DNA of 64,000 nucleotides, taken from positions 30,741 through 94,740 of the forward strand of contig JAKRSD010000023.1 of assembly GCA_022402535.1 (NCBI GenBank), written 5' to 3'. Shown here one piece after another: positions 4,764 through 39,554 of this stretch. Position numbers and translations under genes: made by a program. This DNA comes from Flavobacteriales bacterium. GTDB taxonomy: Bacteria > Bacteroidota > Bacteroidia > CAIKAF01. Each line of letters opens with the position of its first letter. The first letter of the stretch is position 1. Below the pieces are notes generated by a model. That model searched no databases and was not told where the DNA came from. It saw nothing but the letters and a program-made list of their open reading frames with translations.

Positions 4764-7700
4764 CTATCGGGGCCACCATTCCAATTTTTCGCGAATCCGG
4801 CGCGGATTCAATTCCTGCATATTCAGGCGGAAACGAATCTGGTTATACCATTTGATATCCGCAAAAGCCAGATAATCCCGTATGTCTTTAGAATGATACA
4901 GCGGAACAAAAATTTCCAACACATCATTTATCACCGACATCATCACTCCCCCGCTATAGCTGAAGTTTACCGATTTTACCTGATTGCCTGTTCCGGCATC
5001 GGTAACCACCTGCCTGAAAACGGCCAAATCGATATACGGCTTAATCGGAATAGGTCCGGGAACTGATGCCTTCAGATTTAAGGCAATCATCCAACGGTCG
5101 GTTTGACCCAAAGGGGTCAACACTTTAAAGCCACCGTCATATTCATAAAACTGGCGCGAAGAAAGCCCTCGGGTTTCAGCCCTTCCCAGATAATAATTAT
5201 CAAACTTATAATCCCAGAATCCGGGATGACCTGAAAGCCGGTATCTGTAATCAAGTACCGTATTGGCTTTCCCCACAAAAGTTCCGGCAAATACACGGAT
5301 ATCCAATCCTTTATTGGCCGAGAGATACGTGATTTTTTGACGGAATTCCACCGAAAGTTTTATGGCACTTCCGGCGCTTACCCCAGGTTTTGAAAACTTG
5401 TCCAATTCCACAATGTATTCGGCCCAAGCCAATAGCTGATAAGGATGCAGTAATCGGGTATCGCGCATGGAAAAACCGATTTCATTTACGTTGAACGCCA
5501 GATTTTTTCGACCGTACGCAGCACGTAACACATCGGTGGCTTCCAGATAATTGAAAATACTGCGGGCATAGAGCTGGGTTTTTCGTTCGCTGAGCGGACT
5601 CGGCGGTCTGAAATTCACCATGATTTTGGGCATTATCCGGTTCCAGTTCCGGGCCTGGGTGTCGAAAAAATAATCGAACCGGGTATACGCCAGTTTGTAC
5701 CAGACACTTTCCACCCTTTTGGAACGCGGTGTAGAAAAAGCCCCACTGATAATTCCCACCCCGGCAAAACCGATGGGATTGAGTGAAACCATGGGCGCAA
5801 ACAGGTATTCAAATTTCTTACGGATAGGCGTTTTGTTATGAATGGCAATGCCTGCCATGCTTTTGTTATAGTTATTCCAAAGGGTTACGGGCAGATAAAA
5901 CACCTGATTCCGGTTGGGCAGATTGGGCGGTCCCATGATAAAATTAAAACGGGTTTTCTCCATACGGGGCAATACGGCTCCCGTCCTGTAAAGGTTATTT
6001 TTGCGGTTCACTTCCGGAATTACCCGATTCCGGTCAATCTGCACGGACATACCTTCCATTGAAGGCAGAAAAAGCACTTTTTCGCCGCTGAACCCTTCCA
6101 TCCAAACCGTGGCCCCTCCAATGCGTTCATCCTGAAATGTGGTAAGCGTAAACGGTCCGGAAACATTCCCTTTGTTTTGAATTAAAACTCCCGTTTCTTT
6201 TTTACCGGTTTGCGGATTCACGAAGGTGCCCACTTTTTTCACCACATAATCCAAATATCCTTTTTCGGGTAGCAGTTCATCAAAAAACCAGCTTAAATCT
6301 TTCTTGGACTGTTGTTCCATCCAAAACCGGAAATAAACAGGCGTGGAAAAATTCATAGTATTCTGTGCGTAATATCCGCTCATCAACGAATCGAAAAGGG
6401 CTGTGCCTAGGTATTGCTCCAGATAATTAAAATGCATGGCATTTTGCCCCCTTACGGCAATTCCGTAATTCCCATCGGGATATTCATCGGCAGCGAGACC
6501 CGAAGGTTGGTCATTGCCTCTGCGCACTTTGTATTGATAAGGAATATGATCCAAATCATCGCGGCGCAAAAAACGAAGTCCCATCACCGGCAATACCCGA
6601 ATGGGCAATCCGTTATAATCGGGTTTCTTTTCGCGCAGGTACTTGCGATAATAGTATGCACTGAGTCCTTCATTCAACCAGGGATTCTGTTTACCGTCGG
6701 AGCCTACTACACCACTAAACCAGGAGTTCGCCACCATACGCATGGTAATATCTTCTAACGAAAGGCGGGAACGTTTATACCCGATAACAGAAACCATGGG
6801 ATAGCTGCGATCTACCCCGGCATACTTCATCCCGTCGGTAATGGTGTATTGACTATACGGATACTCCCCTATTTTTTCGCTGTAATAGGTTATGGCATTT
6901 TTCAGGTATTCGATTTCGCGGGTCCAAAGCTTTTGAAATTTGGGACGGTAAAAAGCATACACATTCACTTTTTTGCCGGATGGAAGCGTGAATTCTTCTC
7001 CATCAACCCAAAAATCTTTGGATGCAAAAAAGGCAAAATCATTCACGTTGGAAGCTTCGTATTCCAAGGTTTTCAACCCTTTCTTTAGTTCGTTAACCGG
7101 CGCAGGACCATTTGCACGGAAAGCGGCCGTCTGTTTTCTTTTTTCATCCAAAAAGGCTAATTCTTCGGGCGTTTTCAGTTCGCCGGTAGAAGCTACCAGA
7201 TAAGAAGCCGGAAGGGTGAGCCTGACTTTAAAATCTGAAAAAGGAGAAAAGATATTTCCCTGATCGGTAAAGGGCACCGGGTATTGTCCGGTAGTTTCTA
7301 CCCACACGGGCTTAGGAAACCAATGGGTGATGTAGTATTCATGCTGCCTGTGTCCGAATGTGGAAACTCCCGCATCTGGAATTTTCACCCTGAAACTGAT
7401 GTTGAATGTGCAGGAAGTTCCAGGTATTATCGGTTTATCCGGAATCACATAAAGGATGTCGGGGTGGGTGTTGTGGTATCCCCAAACCAAGGGCGTCCCA
7501 TTCGATTGAAAATGCAGAGAATCGGTATACCCGCCATATTTTGCGGGTCGCAATTTGAGTTTTTCGTTGCGTTTGTCGGTTAGCTGATTCGCGAGCGCCG
7601 TGTTATTGGCCGAATACGCATTGGCCCATACATGAAACCATACCGTATCCATCGTGTTTCGGGAGGTATTGACAAAATACACCTCTTCGCGGCCATGAAG

Positions 7701-7847
7701 CGAATGGGTTTGGTCGTTGAGCGAAACCTGAATATCAAAACGCATGTTCTGTGCCTGAGTTTTCTTATTGAAAACCAGCACGGATAAAGCACATAAAAAA
7801 GCCGCAGAAATAAATCCGCGGCTGAAATGAGAATATGTTTTAGCCAT
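4764..7847 (-). CDS. Large secreted protein with M1-aminopeptidase-like core lacking the HEXXH zinc motif
   Basis: 1027-aa ORF with an N-terminal signal peptide. The segment TMRMVANSWFSG...NPWLNEGLSAYY has the spacing of the M1 gluzincin HEXXH-(18)-E motif (HELAHQWFG...WLNEGFA), but His/Glu/His are replaced by R/M/N. Confidence 0.6.
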   Translation of the reverse strand: MAKTYSHFSRGFISAAFLCALSVLVFNKKTQAQNMRFDIQVSLNDQTHSLHGREEVYFVNTSRNTMDTVWFHVWANAYSANNTALANQLTDKRNEKLKLRPAKYGGYTDSLHFQSNGTPLVWGYHNTHPDILYVIPDKPIIPGTSCTFNISFRVKIPDAGVSTFGHRQHEYYITHWFPKPVWVETTGQYPVPFTDQGNIFSPFSDFKVRLTLPASYLVASTGELKTPEELAFLDEKRKQTAAFRANGPAPVNELKKGLKTLEYEASNVNDFAFFASKDFWVDGEEFTLPSGKKVNVYAFYRPKFQKLWTREIEYLKNAITYYSEKIGEYPYSQYTITDGMKYAGVDRSYPMVSVIGYKRSRLSLEDITMRMVANSWFSGVVGSDGKQNPWLNEGLSAYYYRKYLREKKPDYNGLPIRVLPVMGLRFLRRDDLDHIPYQYKVRRGNDQPSGLAADEYPDGNYGIAVRGQNAMHFNYLEQYLGTALFDSLMSGYYAQNTMNFSTPVYFRFWMEQQSKKDLSWFFDELLPEKGYLDYVVKKVGTFVNPQTGKKETGVLIQNKGNVSGPFTLTTFQDERIGGATVWMEGFSGEKVLFLPSMEGMSVQIDRNRVIPEVNRKNNLYRTGAVLPRMEKTRFNFIMGPPNLPNRNQVFYLPVTLWNNYNKSMAGIAIHNKTPIRKKFEYLFAPMVSLNPIGFAGVGIISGAFSTPRSKRVESVWYKLAYTRFDYFFDTQARNWNRIMPKIMVNFRPPSPLSERKTQLYARSIFNYLEATDVLRAAYGRKNLAFNVNEIGFSMRDTRLLHPYQLLAWAEYIVELDKFSKPGVSAGSAIKLSVEFRQKITYLSANKGLDIRVFAGTFVGKANTVLDYRYRLSGHPGFWDYKFDNYYLGRAETRGLSSRQFYEYDGGFKVLTPLGQTDRWMIALNLKASVPGPIPIKPYIDLAVFRQVVTDAGTGNQVKSVNFSYSGGVMMSVINDVLEIFVPLYHSKDIRDYLAFADIKWYNQIRFRLNMQELNPRRIREKLEWWPR

Positions 7848-7864
7848 GTTTCAATAACAAACAT

Positions 7865-8995
7865 TTACGGCATTAGTTCAGCCAATTTTTGTTCCAGCAT
7901 CGGACCACGTAAATCCGAAGCAATGATTTTACCTTCTTTATCCAACAAAAACGATTTAGGAATAGATGTTACATTGTATAATTTGGCCGCTGCCGAATTC
8001 CAAAACTGCAAATCGCTCACATGAATCCAAGTCAGGTTATCGGCGGCAATGGCATCAGTCCAGGCTTTTTTCTCTTTGTCGAGCGAAACAGCATAAATTT
8101 CAAGGCCTTTACTTTTATATTTTGCATAGGCATTCACGATATTCGGGTTTTCCATGCGGCACGGACGGCACCATGAGGCCCAGAAATCGATAAGCACATA
8201 TTTTCCGCGTAGCGAAGACAGCTTAATATTTTTTCCGTTGGGATCGGGAAGGTCAATTTCCGGGGCTTCCGCACCCGAACCGGTACTGGCTTTGGAGGTA
8301 ATCATGGCGTGAAAATTCCGCACAAAGCCATTGTTCGGATGGGCTTTAATTAAACTTTCAGCTACTTTCTTGTGATAATCCATGTACTGGGCCGGATCTA
8401 ACTGACCCACCGTTTCCAGAGCCACCAGAGAATTCAGATTTTCATCTACCACTTTTTTCATGTATTCAATCTGCTGCTGTTGGCGTTTGTTGGCAATTTC
8501 CTGAAACTCGATGGCTTTGAGTGCCTTGGTTGCCGGATCGGTGATTTTTTGGAATTCGGTATTCAATGAATCATTAAATGCCTGATTGCTCATGATGCGG
8601 CGGGTAACCAGATTCAGCGTCTGTGACTCCGGACTTCCTTCCACTTCATAATCCTCGCCTATTTGCGCTCCTTTGGACGTAAAGTTGATTTTTTCGTTGG
8701 GTCCGGTGATGAAATACACCTGTGCACCGGGTGTAGGTTGAGGATTCCCACCTTTAACCCGAAGGCGGTAATAGTTATAATCCGTAGGTTTTTTAACGAT
8801 ATAAAACGTTCCGTTTTTTTCGATGCGGGCGCTATCCAAAAATTCGGTGTTGCCCACTACCACTTTTTCTACGATTACGGTTTTTCCTGCGCCTGCCGCA
8901 TATGAACCTTTGATGAAATACTCTTTAGGGGCAGAGGGCCCGCAAGCCGTAAATACTGAGTAAAATAATATTGAAAGTAAGGATATCATTCGCAT
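7865..8995 (-). CDS. TlpA-like thiol:disulfide oxidoreductase lipoprotein (thioredoxin fold, WxxWCxPC)
   Basis: Lipoprotein signal (MRMISLLSILFYSVFTACG). C-terminal thioredoxin-like domain with the DFWASWCRPCR active-site motif. N-terminal DUF4369-like domain. Confidence 0.8.
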   Translation of the reverse strand: MRMISLLSILFYSVFTACGPSAPKEYFIKGSYAAGAGKTVIVEKVVVGNTEFLDSARIEKNGTFYIVKKPTDYNYYRLRVKGGNPQPTPGAQVYFITGPNEKINFTSKGAQIGEDYEVEGSPESQTLNLVTRRIMSNQAFNDSLNTEFQKITDPATKALKAIEFQEIANKRQQQQIEYMKKVVDENLNSLVALETVGQLDPAQYMDYHKKVAESLIKAHPNNGFVRNFHAMITSKASTGSGAEAPEIDLPDPNGKNIKLSSLRGKYVLIDFWASWCRPCRMENPNIVNAYAKYKSKGLEIYAVSLDKEKKAWTDAIAADNLTWIHVSDLQFWNSAAAKLYNVTSIPKSFLLDKEGKIIASDLRGPMLEQKLAELMP

Positions 8996-9046: not shown

Positions 9047-9640
9047 TTATTCTTCTTCATCGCTGCGGCGGAGTTTATCCGCCTTGGGAAATTTTTCGTG
9101 AGAGAGAATCCGTTTAGCCTGTTTGAAATGGCGTTCCTGATGAAGTGCCATGATTTCGAGCACATCTTTGAGTTTGTAGGTGATATATGGCGAAAAAGGG
9201 GAACGGACATAGTACTTGTCATTATTTACCGAATCCAGCTTTTTTAAGTATTCCAGCACCGATACTTCGTGTTCATTGAATTCATCAAGCAGTTCTTCAT
9301 TCAGTGCGGAAGCAGATGGAATAAAAATCTGTGGCGCTTCCACTTTTTTGAGCGATTCGGGTTTTACCAAACCGATAACCAAGCGACCCCAAAAACGGGC
9401 TTTCCCGGGAATCAGACTCCAAAAGGGTCTTCTATATTTTCCCGACAGGATTTTTTCTATCTGCGAAAAATAAGAACGGTCCGCAATCATGATGTGTTCC
9501 AGACATTGGCCGATGCTCCATGTGCTTTCATCGGGTTTCCAATTCAGCTGAAAACGGGTAAGATTGTTCAATTCATCATGAACATCCTGTTTTACCAAAT
9601 CAATGCGATATATAAGTTCTTCAAGATGTTTGTTGTGCAT
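9047..9640 (-). CDS. DinB/YfiT-like metal-dependent protein (DinB_2 family)
   Basis: 197-aa ORF with conserved His residues (EHIM...HQERH) typical of DinB-family four-helix-bundle proteins. Confidence 0.5.
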   Translation of the reverse strand: MHNKHLEELIYRIDLVKQDVHDELNNLTRFQLNWKPDESTWSIGQCLEHIMIADRSYFSQIEKILSGKYRRPFWSLIPGKARFWGRLVIGLVKPESLKKVEAPQIFIPSASALNEELLDEFNEHEVSVLEYLKKLDSVNNDKYYVRSPFSPYITYKLKDVLEIMALHQERHFKQAKRILSHEKFPKADKLRRSDEEE

Positions 9641-9655
9641 GGTTTTACAATTTTA

Positions 9656-11107
9656 TCAGGCGTCCAACTTTTCTTTCAGCAGGCGTGTGGTTACCTTGGG
9701 ATCGGCTTTGCCTCCTGAAATTTTCATGACTTCGCCCATAAACATGCCGATCAGTCCTACTTTGCCGCCTTTGTATTCGGCTACTTTTTCGGGAAATTTG
9801 GCAATCACCTGATCCACCCAGGCCGAAAGCGCACTTTCGTCGCTCTGCTGAATCAGATTTTTTTCTTCGGCAAGGACGGCTGCCGATTTTATCGGATTTT
9901 CCAGCAAGGCAGGGAAAATATTTTCCGAAGCCACCGTATTGCTCACTTTGCCCGATTTCACCAAAGCAATCAGTTCTCCTATTTTTTCGCCACCGAGCGG
10001 GAATTTTTCAATCGAAAGGCCTTTTTCATTCAGATATGAACGAATTTTACCCATCATCCAGTTGGCCGCCGCTTTATAATCTTCGGTGTGTTTAATAATC
10101 TGTAAAAAATAGGCTACCGTAGCCTTATCTTCCGTAATCCAGTAGGCATCATATTCGGGCAGTCCGTATTGTTTCACAAACTTTTGAAACAACGCTTCCG
10201 GAAGCTCTGGCAGTTCCGATTTAATTTTATCGATATAGGCTTCGCTCACAATAAGGGGCGGAAGATCGGGCTCAGGAAAATAGCGGTAATCGTGTGCCAT
10301 TTCTTTGCTACGCATCGAACGGGTTTCGCCCGAAACGGCATCGAAATTTCGCGTTTCCTGATAAATGGTTTCGCCAGTTTCAAGGCAGTTGCACTGACGC
10401 TGGAATTCAAATTCAATGGCCCGCTGCACATTGCGGATGGAGTTCATGTTTTTTACTTCCACTTTGGTGCCCAACTCCGTGGCGCCTTTCAGCCTTACGG
10501 AAATATTGGCATCGCAACGGAGCGAACCTTCTTCCATATTTCCGTCGCATACATCTAAGTAGCGTACCAGTTTGCGGATTTCGGTTAAGTATAAACCGGC
10601 CTCCTGAGAGGAAGAAATATCGGGACGGGAAACCATTTCCACCAGCGCCACACCGGCCCGGTTCAGGTCTATCAGCGAATCAAACGGATCTTGGTCGTGG
10701 ATGCTTTTTCCGGCATCTTCTTCTAAGTGTATCCGCTCCAAACGGATGTTTTTGGCATTGCCCGCATCATCTTTTATGGTAATGTATCCGTCGTAGCAGA
10801 TGGGTGTATCAAACTGCGAAATCTGATACCCTTTGGGAAGGTCGGCATAAAAATAATTTTTACGGGCAAAACGGTTCACTTCACGGATTTGGCAATTGGT
10901 GGCCAAACCCAGTTTCACGGCCAGTTCCACCACTTTTTCGTTCAGCTTGGGTAAGGTTCCCGGATGCCCCAGGGTGATCACGCTCACACAGGTATTGGGC
11001 GATGCGCCAAACTCGGTACTGTCTGCACTAAAGGCTTTGCTGAGTGTCTGCAGTTGCGCATGCACTTCCAGCCCGATTACGATTTCGTATTTGTCTTCAA
11101 ACTTCAT
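9656..11107 (-). CDS. gatB: Asp-tRNA(Asn)/Glu-tRNA(Gln) amidotransferase subunit B
   Basis: MKFEDKYEIVIGLEVHAQL N-terminus and full-length GatB similarity. Start trimmed to the MKFEDKY ATG (complement of 11105..11107). Confidence 0.9.
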   Translation of the reverse strand: MKFEDKYEIVIGLEVHAQLQTLSKAFSADSTEFGASPNTCVSVITLGHPGTLPKLNEKVVELAVKLGLATNCQIREVNRFARKNYFYADLPKGYQISQFDTPICYDGYITIKDDAGNAKNIRLERIHLEEDAGKSIHDQDPFDSLIDLNRAGVALVEMVSRPDISSSQEAGLYLTEIRKLVRYLDVCDGNMEEGSLRCDANISVRLKGATELGTKVEVKNMNSIRNVQRAIEFEFQRQCNCLETGETIYQETRNFDAVSGETRSMRSKEMAHDYRYFPEPDLPPLIVSEAYIDKIKSELPELPEALFQKFVKQYGLPEYDAYWITEDKATVAYFLQIIKHTEDYKAAANWMMGKIRSYLNEKGLSIEKFPLGGEKIGELIALVKSGKVSNTVASENIFPALLENPIKSAAVLAEEKNLIQQSDESALSAWVDQVIAKFPEKVAEYKGGKVGLIGMFMGEVMKISGGKADPKVTTRLLKEKLDA

Positions 11108-11289
11108 CTTGGGCAAATGTAGCCGTTCCCGGTTTATCTGCCTTACATGTGGATAAATTGACCCCTTATCTGTTAAAACCAACTTCGTAAACTCCTGTAT
11201 TTCAATGTATAAAAATTATGATGCATGCATACCTTTTATATAGTAAAAATGGCTAACTTGCAGACACAAACTGTAGAACCAAGATAATC

Positions 11290-38182: not shown

Positions 38183-38386
38183 TCATCCCTAAAGGGACTT
38201 CCCCATTTTTTTATTCCGGTTTCTACCTATATGTCATTCCTACGGAATGAATGCGAAACCCTTCAAATCAAAACGATTGTACTACATCAAACTACGTAGC
38301 CACATGCCCTGTCCCGTCAGGGACAACCTATCGGTAGAAAATGCCACTTCCTCCAAATCAAGTGCCTTTAGGTACGCAATGGGTGT
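38183..38386 (+). mobile_element. MITE-like repeat copy 2
   Basis: Near-identical to 33295..33500 with small indels. Direct orientation. Confidence 0.7.
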
Positions 38387-38410
38387 AAATCATATTATGT
38401 GTCTTCAATA

Positions 38411-38476
38411 TCCCGTCCCTAAAGGGATTACTATTCCAGGTTCTACCATAGCTCATTCCTACGGAATGAGAGAGAG
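38411..38476 (+). mobile_element. Partial third MITE-like copy (5' end only)
   Basis: ATCCCGTCCCTAAAGGGATTACTATTCCAGGTTCTACCATAGCTCATTCCTACGGAATGAGAGAG matches the first about 65 bp of the element. Confidence 0.55.
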
Positions 38477-38627
38477 ACATATACCCAAGCCAAACCCATC
38501 TACCGGAATATTTAGTATTAATTCTTCCATCATACCGGAATATTTCATAGTTTTGAAACATGTAACTTCGTGTTGGTCATCAGCCCTTTATGATATTCAA
38601 TCCTTTTACTCAATAACAATTCTTTCC

Positions 38628-39554
38628 ATGAAAAAAGCCTTTATTTTTCTCAATCTGATTTTTCTATCCCTTGGCGCAATGACCCAGGCTCCTCAAAAAA
38701 TGAGTTTTCAGGCAGTTATCCGAAGTGCATCCGGTCAGTTGGTGATTAACGCCCAGGTAGGCATGCGTATCAGTATTTTGCAGGGTTCTGCATCGGGTAC
38801 ACCCACTTACGTGGAAACCCAAACGGCCCAAACTAACGGTAATGGCCTGATAAGTTTGGAAGTAGGCAGCGGAAATGCAGTAAGCGGCAGTTTTCAAAAT
38901 ATCAACTGGAGCTCGGGTCCGTATTTTATAAAAACAGAAACTGACCCCGCAGGCGGAAACAACTATTCCATTTTAGGCACCAGTCAGCTGCTTTCCGTGC
39001 CTTATGCCTTATATGCCGAGAAATTAAGCAGCAATGCGTTTCAATTTTTCTACGCCGACAGAGACGGTGACGGATTTGGAGACCCATTTGGGGCTTATTA
39101 TGGTCCTTCTACCCTAACGGGATATGTGAGCAACAATACCGACTGCAACGATCAGGAAGCTTCTGCATTTCCGGGAGCCACAGAAATATGCGATGGAATA
39201 GACAATAACTGTAACGGTCAGATTGACGAAGGCTTAACGCTGACTACCTATTATTTGGATGCTGACGGTGACAATTTTGGAAACCTAAGCATTTCCATCT
39301 CCACATGCGCGGCTCCCCCATCGGGTTATGTCATTAATGGAGGTGATTGCGACGATAGTAATCCGACGATTTTCCCCGGCGTTTCAGTCGCCTGTCAGGG
39401 CAATAATGTCGGTATCTGTAATCCGGGTACCAAAACCTGTCAAACCAATGGAAATTTCAGCAATTGTGTAGGGCAGGTATTACCGCTTCCTGCGGAAATT
39501 TGCGGAAACGGTATAGACGACGACTGCAATGGTATAGTGGATGACGGATGCTGA
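38628..39554 (+). CDS. Secreted protein with MopE-like putative metal-binding Cys/Asp repeats
   Basis: Trimmed to the MKKAFIFLNLIFLSLGAMTQA signal peptide. C-terminal repeats DxDGDGFGD...CNDxxAxxFPGATExCDGxDNNCNG...DEG are typical of the putative metal-binding motif. The upstream ORF-track extension is a translation of the MITE. Confidence 0.6.
   Translation: MKKAFIFLNLIFLSLGAMTQAPQKMSFQAVIRSASGQLVINAQVGMRISILQGSASGTPTYVETQTAQTNGNGLISLEVGSGNAVSGSFQNINWSSGPYFIKTETDPAGGNNYSILGTSQLLSVPYALYAEKLSSNAFQFFYADRDGDGFGDPFGAYYGPSTLTGYVSNNTDCNDQEASAFPGATEICDGIDNNCNGQIDEGLTLTTYYLDADGDNFGNLSISISTCAAPPSGYVINGGDCDDSNPTIFPGVSVACQGNNVGICNPGTKTCQTNGNFSNCVGQVLPLPAEICGNGIDDDCNGIVDDGC

Follow-up and report, generated by a model that had tools for sequence, protein, structure and literature searches.

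The stretch of DNA analyzed here (the window, 64,000 nucleotides) contains an open reading frame whose product is identical to NCBI MCG9911619.1, annotated as "M1 family metallopeptidase [Flavobacteriales bacterium]" and derived from a metagenome-assembled genome (MAG). The product consists of a signal peptide, M1-like domains I-III and a predicted C-terminal beta-barrel, and it is preceded by a gene for a TlpA-like protein (Table 1). A sequence-only reading had described the protein as giant; this was overstated, as ~1000 aa is the usual length in the family of proteins with this architecture (hereafter, the M1-barrel family). That reading had also left unstated that the gene is on the minus strand. 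Q33 is nearly invariant in the M1-barrel family (at least 90% in the alignment), so cleavage of the signal peptide after A32 fits the Bacteroidetes Q-rule (PMC5837995). The signal-peptide region also includes a stable terminator-like hairpin followed by a U-run (7800..7823, minus strand, within codons 9-16), which an ortholog with 60% identity also has; how it relates to the loss of the peptidase site described below is uncertain. A search with Rfam over the whole 64-kb window returned zero matches.

Table 1. Positions of the M1-barrel gene, its features and its upstream neighbor, numbered from the first nucleotide of the window.
Feature	Position	Strand	Content or basis
Whole gene	4764..7847	-	1027 aa, from signal peptide through M1-like domains I-III to the predicted C-terminal beta-barrel
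Sec/SPI signal peptide, aa 1-32	7752..7847	-	sequence; putative cleavage between A32 and Q33, assigned from the sequence and Q33 conservation
M1 domain I (N-terminal beta domain), aa 33-230	7158..7751	-	model, Foldseek, alignment
Asn at family-invariant Glu198 (domain I)	7254-7256	-	alignment
Thermolysin-like M1 catalytic domain II, catalytically degenerate, aa 231-530	6258..7157	-	Pfam, profile, model, Foldseek
GVDRSY, family GGGMEY (GXMEN-type exopeptidase motif), aa 344-349	6801..6818	-	alignment
RMVAN replacing HExxH, aa 370-374	6726..6740	-	alignment
Glu393, retained third zinc-ligand position (WLNEG, family WMDEG)	6669..6671	-	alignment
Arg466 at catalytic Tyr position	6450..6452	-	alignment; VYxK in the family pairs with isYsKG of puromycin-sensitive aminopeptidase
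Beta-sandwich corresponding to M1 domain III, aa 531-610	6018..6257	-	model; Foldseek, ~620-640 columns to ERAP/IRAP
Predicted 16-strand transmembrane beta-barrel, aa ~631-1008	4824..5957	-	closest in structure searches to Omp85-superfamily barrels
60-aa loop joining predicted strands 11 and 12 (Omp85 L6 position)	5094..5273	-	model, alignment
KPYIDLA in predicted strand 13; family KPFxDxG resembles Omp85 FxDxG	5022..5042	-	alignment, hhalign
TlpA/ResA-like thiol:disulfide oxidoreductase gene (NCBI MCG9911620.1)	7865..8995	-	Pfam/NCBIfam

The sequence-only reading had identified the protein as M1-like, and both profile and structure searches bore this out. Based on Pfam analysis of the target alone, PF01433 scored 18.3 bits (E 0.0018), under the 27.7-bit gathering threshold, and NCBIfam gave no match; a profile built from the family, compared with PDB sequences, matched PSA (1.5e-13), F3 (7.5e-13) and PepN (2.7e-11). 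We used 37 sequences to build AlphaFold2 models; the full model had a pLDDT of 85.9 and a pTM of 0.83, and Foldseek aligned it over ~630 columns spanning domains I-III to ERAP2, ERAP1 and IRAP at E ~1e-20 (ERAP2, 6e-21). The target is a genuine M1 homolog, with domains I-III homologous to those of PepN, ERAP1/2, IRAP, tricorn factor F3 and LTA4H (PF01433). Whereas classical M1 enzymes carry a helical domain IV, the models place a predicted beta-barrel at that position in the target and in the whole Bacteroidota subfamily. Proteins that join M1 to a barrel in this way are spread widely through Bacteroidota (~980 clusters at 50% identity), and almost all of them are catalytically intact; the active members have HExxH-X18-E, the GGMEY (GXMEN-type) motif and the catalytic Tyr. 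An active M1 paralog was not encoded by any of the ten largest other open reading frames of the window, which we scanned for one.

We aligned the target with 26 full-length homologs bearing HE[VI][GA]HNWF...WMDEG. The peptide quoted in the sequence-only reading, ITMRMVANSWFSGVVGSDGKQNPWLNEGLSAYY, is found in the translation of the open reading frame, and RMVAN aligns exactly on HExxH (HEVGH in the relatives), such that both His and the Glu are substituted, as had been claimed. The flanking gluzincin context was also correctly described as kept: Glu393 remains within NEG, and it is retained in the target and in 8/11 sequences of the clade to which the target belongs, with ADG, TGG and SDG elsewhere in the clade. 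Neither HExxH nor HxxEH occurs anywhere in the target, whose catalytic domain has two His only, neither of them invariant in the clade. The predicted abolition of the zinc and catalytic site holds, and the loss is wider than was proposed, as the target differs from classical M1 enzymes in lacking HExxH, the GXMEN Glu, the domain-I Glu198, which is likely one of two anchors of the substrate N-terminus, and the catalytic Tyr, at whose position all 11 clade sequences have R or K. With the zinc ligands, the GXMEN-type motif, the domain-I Glu and the Tyr all lost, the target cannot be a metallopeptidase, and canonical binding of peptide N-termini by its M1 module has probably been lost as well.

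The HExxH motif is degenerate in 11/11 clade sequences and present in 26/26 other homologs. Conservation of RMVAN itself was only partial: a degenerate site is kept across ~10 ortholog clusters (50-94% identity), but the letters vary, with RMVAN, TTASN, RLIGQ, KLAAH and IATAN among the clade pentapeptides. Of the 126 alignment columns that 24 or more of the 26 active homologs conserve, the clade has lost 27, all of them within aa 30-500 and none in the barrel.

The upstream gene encodes, as the sequence-only reading had stated, a co-oriented TlpA-like protein 17 bp away, with a CxxC and a lipobox-like N-terminus (VFTAC, read by eye). Its product combines DUF4369 with a thioredoxin fold (FWASWCRPCRME; active site WCRPC) and matched the AhpC-TSA (8.9e-22) and Thioredoxin_8 (7.5e-20) profiles, as well as the ResA subfamily (E 1.9e-28, under the curated cut-off). 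The thioredoxin fold and WCxPC are held in common with TlpA/ResA-like oxidoreductases, to which the neighbor adds the N-terminal DUF4369. We scanned contigs using a peptide pattern unsuited to the degenerate clade, and the scan returned active homologs only. Of 67 informative species genomes, 36 have a co-oriented TlpA-like gene immediately upstream and 31 are without it; gatB is found further upstream in 22. The CxxC is retained in all 44 of the TlpA-like neighbors (44/44), and the gaps between the two genes are ~2-60 bp (few larger) across orders with 55-65% GatB identity. Because the TlpA-like gene is found upstream of active homologs too, the target is the positional ortholog of an active enzyme; the pairing is common to catalytically intact orthologs across Bacteroidota and is not particular to the dead form.

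These results support one part of the earlier proposal that the two genes form an envelope folding or binding module, namely that the TlpA-like gene is an old and real neighbor, but they do not support specificity for the dead form or a role of the M1-barrel protein as disulfide client; folding is speculation. Action of the TlpA-like protein on disulfides of the M1-barrel protein was rejected: no cysteine is conserved in the family (a single one is present in the mature target, and none at all in some members), so the M1-barrel protein is not itself a disulfide client of its neighbor.

Neither Pfam nor NCBIfam matched the C-terminal half of the target. In the model, the C-terminal ~400 aa (pLDDT 86) form 16 long strands, and we predict on this basis that they constitute a 16-strand outer-membrane barrel. 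Almost all of the best 50 Foldseek matches of the barrel are Omp85 proteins (top Sam50, TamA and BamA), with modest TM-scores (0.32-0.47). The Omp85 lid-lock consists of (V/I/L)RG(F/Y) in loop 6 and FxDxG in strand 13 (PMC11358297). In the long loop between predicted strands 11 and 12, R889 and Q899 are family-invariant and D879 and Y880 nearly invariant; the context of Arg889 is GRxE, differing from the Omp85 RGF. The model points to an Omp85-like fold, for which sequence profiles give no confirmation: Pfam PF01103 (D15 domain) had no match at E <= 1, the barrel profile retrieved one irrelevant match and no Omp85 chain from PDB sequences at E <= 10, and its comparison by hhalign with a 25-sequence Omp85 alignment was non-significant (E 0.065, probability 0.85%). 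POTRA (PF07244) was not found by Pfam, and the region before the barrel is modeled as the helix-free M1 domain-III beta-sandwich; POTRA is likewise absent from the "noNterm" Omp85 proteins.

The barrel could instead be a porin-like generic anchor independent of Omp85, and the TlpA-like neighbor could reflect synteny without functional coupling. The modest TM-scores and the non-significant profile-profile comparison are in line with such an anchor, but two structure-comparison methods ranked Omp85 barrels over all other 16-22-strand barrels, a single long loop and an FxDxG-like motif are found where Omp85 has L6 and strand 13, and the one match given by hhalign, albeit in a non-significant alignment, pairs the strand-13 motif of the family with the Omp85 FxDGG. 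As for the neighbor, housekeeping gatB is syntenic too, indicating that synteny persists at this locus, and the TlpA-like gene is absent in nearly half of the informative genomes; against plain synteny, the closely spaced pair is kept across orders that differ substantially in GatB. We consider this alternative doubtful. Less probable still, and in our judgment unlikely, is that the C-terminal half is not a barrel and that the protein is a soluble pseudo-peptidase, either periplasmic or secreted, whose C-terminal domain is beta-rich; this would agree with the lack of a match to any outer-membrane protein family (Pfam, PDB profile, hhalign), with the predicted nature of the barrel and with the C-terminus, where the last strand is followed by a tail of ~19 aa and there is no C-terminal aromatic residue. 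The earlier description of the protein as secreted is correct in that there is a Sec/SPI signal peptide; however, its C-terminal half is a predicted membrane barrel, so it would not be a free soluble protein. [quoted passage not shown]

The gene is not decaying. Based on comparison with a 94%-identical ortholog, dN/dS is 0.14 overall, 0.11 in the barrel and 0.15-0.18 in the M1 module. We compared rates using pairs matched at 54-65% GatB identity. Identity of the M1 part was 35.1 +/- 2.4% between clade and active sequences, against 49.6 +/- 2.7% between active sequences, whereas the corresponding values were 32.3% and 31.4% for the barrel and 38.4% and 39.0% for TlpA. Once species divergence is matched, acceleration is confined to the M1 part, and the barrel and the TlpA partner are unchanged. 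At least two further lineages, P0332 and P0087, independently lost the catalytic motifs, and both retain the barrel. The retention of the barrel half and of the redox partner gene implies that the conserved job is probably independent of peptide cleavage.

In favor of a working peptidase or hydrolase with a remodeled active site, using other metal ligands or another nucleophile, are the purifying selection on the M1 module, the retained third ligand Glu393 and the clade-specific conserved charged residues at active-site positions (D346, R/K466). We nevertheless regard it as very improbable: both His, the general-base Glu, the GXMEN Glu, the domain-I Glu and the Tyr are lost together, the few His that remain in the catalytic domain are not invariant, and the replacement pentapeptide varies within the clade, a pattern of relaxed constraint rather than of a new catalytic site. 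Ongoing decay into a pseudogene, or an artefact of assembly or annotation, can be dismissed almost entirely, since the faster M1 part is set against low dN/dS, an open reading frame that is intact in ~10 clusters and full length in many independent assemblies and samples, and length and architecture retained by clade members down to 50% identity.

Among known systems, the best architectural analog is PlpD, in which a patatin-like enzyme domain, shown to be periplasmic, is fused to an Omp85 barrel (PMC11116518). In both cases the enzyme module is N-terminal to a 16-strand barrel, which in PlpD is of Omp85 type; however, PlpD has a patatin lipase domain, POTRA and a barrel recognizable as Omp85 by sequence, whereas the M1-barrel family has M1 and neither POTRA nor an Omp85 sequence signal. 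The target had no Pfam match to a patatin domain, and it does not belong to type Vd. The "Omp85-metalloprotease" subfamily of Heinz and Lithgow (2014), for which a role in periplasmic quality control was proposed, has a hydrolase-type domain on an Omp85 barrel and carries PF00149 rather than M1 (PMC4104836); that survey lists ten Omp85 subfamilies, none of them the M1-barrel family (PMC4104836). BepA is described as a periplasmic M48 metalloprotease that docks on BAM and acts in outer-membrane protein quality control (PMC13478230, PMC13655028). It is a separate soluble protein of another peptidase family, which makes the analogy with the M1-barrel protein a functional one only. BepA also has a protease-independent chaperone-like activity. 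A non-peptidase M1 homolog is known in TAF2, a subunit of the eukaryotic TFIID in which the M1 fold is a scaffold without a zinc site; TAF2 is a nuclear protein without a membrane barrel and is not close kin of the target. In the literature, we found no M1-Omp85 or M1-barrel fusion and no M1 or TlpA subunit of the Bacteroidota BAM complex.

On balance, we favor the explanation that the conserved function lies in the barrel and that the dead M1 module is a periplasmic scaffold beside the TlpA partner. The target would then be embedded in the outer membrane and belong to a family that spans the phylum Bacteroidota, with a Sec signal, M1 domains I-III and, in place of the helical domain IV of classical M1 enzymes, a putative 16-strand Omp85-like barrel. 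By analogy with PlpD and with Omp85 topology, the most likely place for the M1 module is the periplasm, suspended beneath the barrel. The module is a complete zinc aminopeptidase in most family members; in the small Flavobacteriales lineage that includes the window, the positional ortholog (gatB - dinB - tlpA-like - M1-barrel) has lost all catalytic motifs, after which the M1 module evolved faster yet under purifying selection, while the barrel and a putatively co-transcribed, CxxC-bearing TlpA-like lipoprotein kept their normal rate. Our best guess for the folded M1 module is a non-catalytic scaffold or binding platform on the outer-membrane barrel, which may work alongside the redox-active TlpA-like partner; the genomic link is what suggests functional coupling between the two.

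For the family as a whole, we tentatively raise the possibility that it is an unrecognized branch of Omp85, or a convergent 16-strand relative, which has M1 in place of POTRA, is operonic with TlpA and forms a periplasmic quality-control or processing station anchored in the outer membrane. If so, the repeated loss of the peptidase site (in the target, P0332 and P0087) would indicate a non-proteolytic core role, such as client binding, barrel-mediated insertion or transport. If the barrel is genuinely related to Omp85, the family would be a third type of enzyme-Omp85 fusion, and a large one (~980 clusters), after those with patatin (PlpD) and with metallophosphoesterase (PF00149, the calcineurin-like metallophosphoesterase family). 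The outer-membrane biogenesis machinery of Bacteroidota has recently proved unusual. The public name "M1 family metallopeptidase" is wrong for the dead clade, which has no catalytic residues, and throughout the family it overlooks half of the protein, the predicted outer-membrane barrel. The dead clade amounts to a natural separation-of-function mutant, in that selection on the gene and on its TlpA-like partner needs no peptide hydrolysis, and it points to an activity worth seeking in tractable Bacteroidota with an active version of the protein.

In GenBank, the 1027-aa M1-barrel protein is named 'M1 family metallopeptidase'. Searched alone, it matched Pfam Peptidase_M1 below threshold (aa 361-523; E 0.0018; 18.3 bits vs. 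a 27.7-bit cut-off), and an NCBIfam search with the protein returned no match. Its membership was settled by a homolog search, which identified ten clusters at 50-94% identity, mostly without recorded PF01433, and ~85 more proteins (mostly 900-1050 aa; 24-34% identical), nearly all with PF01433. A family profile built from 37 full-length sequences matched solved M1 enzymes (puromycin-sensitive aminopeptidase, 1.5e-13; tricorn factor F3, 7.5e-13; PepN, ERAP2, and LTA4H, 1e-11 to 1e-9). Foldseek aligned the AlphaFold2 model (pLDDT 85.9, pTM 0.83) to ERAP2, ERAP1, IRAP, and Toxoplasma APN at E ~1e-20 over ~630 columns, a span covering M1 domains I, II, and III. The protein is an M1 homolog, as the sequence-only reading had claimed; that reading had also correctly described the RMVAN-bearing ORF and the co-oriented TlpA-like lipoprotein gene 17 bases upstream, leaving the strand (minus) unstated.

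Coordinates of the M1-barrel gene, its neighbors, and other features in the window
Feature	Position	Strand	Remarks
POTRA + Omp85 protein, 583-600 aa	1486-3288	+	100% identical to NCBI MH137_09995, Flavobacteriales MAG
DUF2079 polytopic membrane protein, 489 aa	3272-4741	-	TTG start as listed
M1-barrel ORF, 1027 aa	4764..7847	-	translation contains EDITMRMVANSWFSGVVGSDGKQNPWLNEGLSAYY
Lower-confidence stretch, aa 401-441	~6525-6647	-	catalytic domain
RMVAN, aa 370-374	6726-6740	-	M1-barrel protein sequence
Terminator-like hairpin	7800-7823	-	within codons 9-16 of M1-barrel gene
TlpA-like partner gene, 376 aa	7865..8995	-	DUF4369 + AhpC/TSA/thioredoxin-like domain; active site FWASWCRPCRME; lipobox-like N-terminus
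gatB + DinB_2-family gene	9047-11182	-	directly upstream of TlpA-like gene; gaps 15 and 51 bp
435-aa ORF	38247-39554	+	repeated Cu-binding MopE-like 'putative metal-binding motif' matches; PF11617, E 4e-22

All 26 distant full-length homologs in the alignment read HE[VIA]xHNWF...W[ML]DEG, and RMVAN aligns against the HE[VIA]xH, which bears out the proposed loss of HEXXH. RMVAN itself is not conserved among orthologs: across 11 sequences of the clade, the small Flavobacteriales lineage with a degenerate site to which this protein belongs, the pentapeptide reads RMVAN, RMVAE, TTASN, TTAGN, RLIGQ, TTAAN, NTAAN, KLAAH, KLTAH, KLIAH, or IATAN, and thus varies as a degenerate site instead of forming a new conserved motif. 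Among 126 conserved columns (the same residue shared by 24 or more of the 26 active sequences, i.e., those with intact HExxH), 27 are gone from the clade. The losses include H370, E371, and H374; G346, M347, and E348 of the family's GGMEY (GXMEN-type) motif; domain-I E198, invariant among active members; and Y466, which aligns with the catalytic Tyr in 'isYsKG' of solved enzymes and is replaced by R or K throughout the 11 clade sequences (roles of M1 catalytic elements are summarized in PMC5545687). E198 probably belongs to the pair of Glu residues that anchor the substrate amino group. No other HExxH and no HxxEH was found in the protein, and its catalytic domain holds two His only, both non-invariant. 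Because HExxH, the GXMEN-type motif, E198, and Y466 are all replaced and no alternative motif is present, the protein cannot be a gluzincin peptidase, and its peptidase is, as predicted from the sequence, almost certainly dead. Elsewhere in the catalytic domain, aa 401-441 were modelled with lower confidence (pLDDT 58-70) and are rich in clade-only conserved residues (R401, K408, N412, G413, P415, P420, R425, R429, D433, P436, and Y439); this stretch is a candidate clade-specific interaction surface.

A pseudogene is ruled out by the intact ORF in many independent assemblies and by a dN/dS of 0.14 against a 94%-identical ortholog (M1 part, 0.15-0.18; C-terminal part, 0.11), values that indicate purifying selection. 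We compared rates in genome pairs matched at 54-65% GatB identity. Active members differed from each other (137 pairs) at 49.6 ± 2.7% identity in the M1 part, 31.4 ± 4.0% in the barrel, and 39.0 ± 3.0% in the TlpA-like protein, whereas clade vs. active comparisons (66 pairs) gave 35.1 ± 2.4%, 32.3 ± 3.1%, and 38.4 ± 1.9%, respectively. M1 identity is lower in the clade, with barrel and TlpA-like protein unchanged; therefore, the acceleration is confined to the former enzyme module. Within the clade, at 85% GatB identity, the usual order is inverted (M1 part 53.5% identical, barrel 71.4%).

At least two other lineages degenerated independently and look like pseudo-peptidases. Both kept the barrel: P0332 has HELLQ and FGLDF in place of the GXMEN-type motif, and P0087 has HAIGY, no GXMEN-type motif, and His for Tyr. 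These two and the clade protein are 27-36% identical among each other. Two further M1-barrel proteins have a damaged HExxH (P0274, HEVGQ; P0370, HEVGW plus a gap), which may reflect single substitutions or sequence errors.

In classical M1 enzymes, the C-terminal domain IV is all-helical (PMC5545687). Here, the full-length model and a second one built from aa 531-1027 alone (pLDDT 86) agree in predicting 16 long antiparallel strands for aa ~631-1008. In structure comparison, the barrel scored highest with Sam50 (17.5/16.6/16.4), followed by the TamA barrel (15.4), Flavobacterium johnsoniae BamA (15.3), Toc75 (15.1), Bacteroides thetaiotaomicron BamA (15.0), and FhaC (14.2); porins and TonB-dependent transporters reached at most 13.7. 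In an independent Foldseek search, BamA, TamA, or Sam50 made up nearly all of the top 50 (E 1e-6 to 8e-4; TM-score 0.32-0.47). The sole long loop (aa 859-918, with family-invariant R889 and Q899) connects strands 11 and 12, as loop L6 does in Omp85 proteins, and the family consensus of strand 13, KPFxDxG (KPYIDLA in this protein), resembles the Omp85 strand-13 FxDxG that locks L6 (PMC11358297). Pfam identified neither PF01103 nor POTRA in the protein, a 47-sequence barrel profile retrieved no Omp85 chain from the PDB at E ≤10, and hhalign against a 25-sequence Omp85 alignment gave only E 0.065, in a single match pairing both strand-13 motifs. Omp85 homology is unconfirmed by these sequence methods, so we call the predicted 16-strand barrel Omp85-like, its superfamily membership being unproven. 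The models make an outer-membrane barrel probable; for true Omp85 homology, we put the chances at roughly even. The barrel is also present in shorter family members from Chitinophagaceae (hhalign E 2e-44). The protein starts with a Sec/SPI signal peptide, likely cleaved at A32|Q33, and the nearly invariant Q33 agrees with the Bacteroidetes Q-rule (PMC5837995); Pfam detected no T9SS C-terminal domain. The signal peptide supports the earlier term "secreted", but given the predicted C-terminal barrel, the protein is better described as exported and inserted into the outer membrane.

Exhaustive phmmer analysis of 1.84 billion 50%-identity representatives identified 981 at E ≤1e-30, among which the degenerate clade is reduced to one representative and a fragment. 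A family pattern unfit for the degenerate clade fetched homologs from 80 species-level Bacteroidota genomes, each homolog carrying exactly one HExxH. In 38 of these 80 genomes, the gene immediately upstream, on the same strand, is a full-length TlpA-like homolog (36 of the 67 loci whose upstream sequence reaches 1200 nt or more), FWASWCxPCRxE is kept in 44 of 44 TlpA-like neighbors, and gatB lies further upstream at 22 of the 80 genome loci. The operon-like pairing with this CxxC protein is ancient: since TlpA-like and gatB genes lie upstream of active homologs, the order gatB-dinB-tlpA-like-M1-barrel, part of five co-directional, tightly packed genes in the window, is ancestral, and the degenerate gene is the positional ortholog of the active enzyme. 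No cysteine is conserved in the family (one in the mature clade protein, none in several members), which rules out the M1-barrel protein as a disulfide client of its TlpA-like neighbor. Functional coupling of the two is about an even bet.

Synteny in the clade also covers an arginase gene and the POTRA/Omp85 gene, which runs convergently to the operon, with a 17-nt overlap at the 3' end of DUF2079; at 58-63% identity, clade members keep this gene syntenic with the pseudo-M1 gene, and it was not found beside active family members. The DUF2079 gene follows the M1-barrel gene after 22 bp and is co-oriented with it. It occurs only in the closest relatives (loci L001-L003); L004 and L006 lack it at the corresponding site. 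Its start differs between gene callers, giving 416 or 489 aa. The hairpin (9-bp stem, six G-C pairs; centroid -16.4 kcal/mol; z -4.0 vs. shuffles) is followed by UUUUUU. The 60%-identical ortholog L004 keeps its stem and U-run and differs in the loop only; in L006 they are not kept. The hairpin may be due to chance, or it may act as an attenuator within the operon, between the TlpA-like and M1-barrel genes. The 435-aa MopE-like ORF is unrelated to the M1-barrel finding.

Non-peptidase M1 homologues are already known. So are enzyme-Omp85 fusions, namely PlpD (PMC11116518) and a PF00149 subfamily (PMC4104836). Our finding varies these known kinds; we found no description of the M1-barrel combination in the Omp85 survey (PMC4104836), recent Bacteroidota BAM/TamL papers, or full-text searching.

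An even strand number combined with Omp85 topology would place the N-terminal M1 module in the periplasm, the location shown experimentally for the PlpD enzyme domain (PMC11116518). In most Bacteroidota, the protein would then be an outer-membrane-tethered periplasmic aminopeptidase beside a lipid-anchored thiol reductase. The obvious guess for the active version is a role in quality control or processing of envelope proteins. Its analogues are BepA, which acts at BAM (PMC13478230, PMC13655028), and the quality-control role that Heinz and Lithgow put forward for PF00149-Omp85 fusions (PMC4104836). In the clade, hydrolysis and, probably, canonical N-terminus binding are gone; the M1 fold would remain as a scaffold or a module for binding, with the conserved function residing in the barrel and the complex. 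We lean slightly toward this whole package of dead M1 scaffold, outer-membrane barrel, and TlpA-like partnership. The main value of the finding lies in a barrel absent from the annotation and in a natural catalytic-dead lineage.
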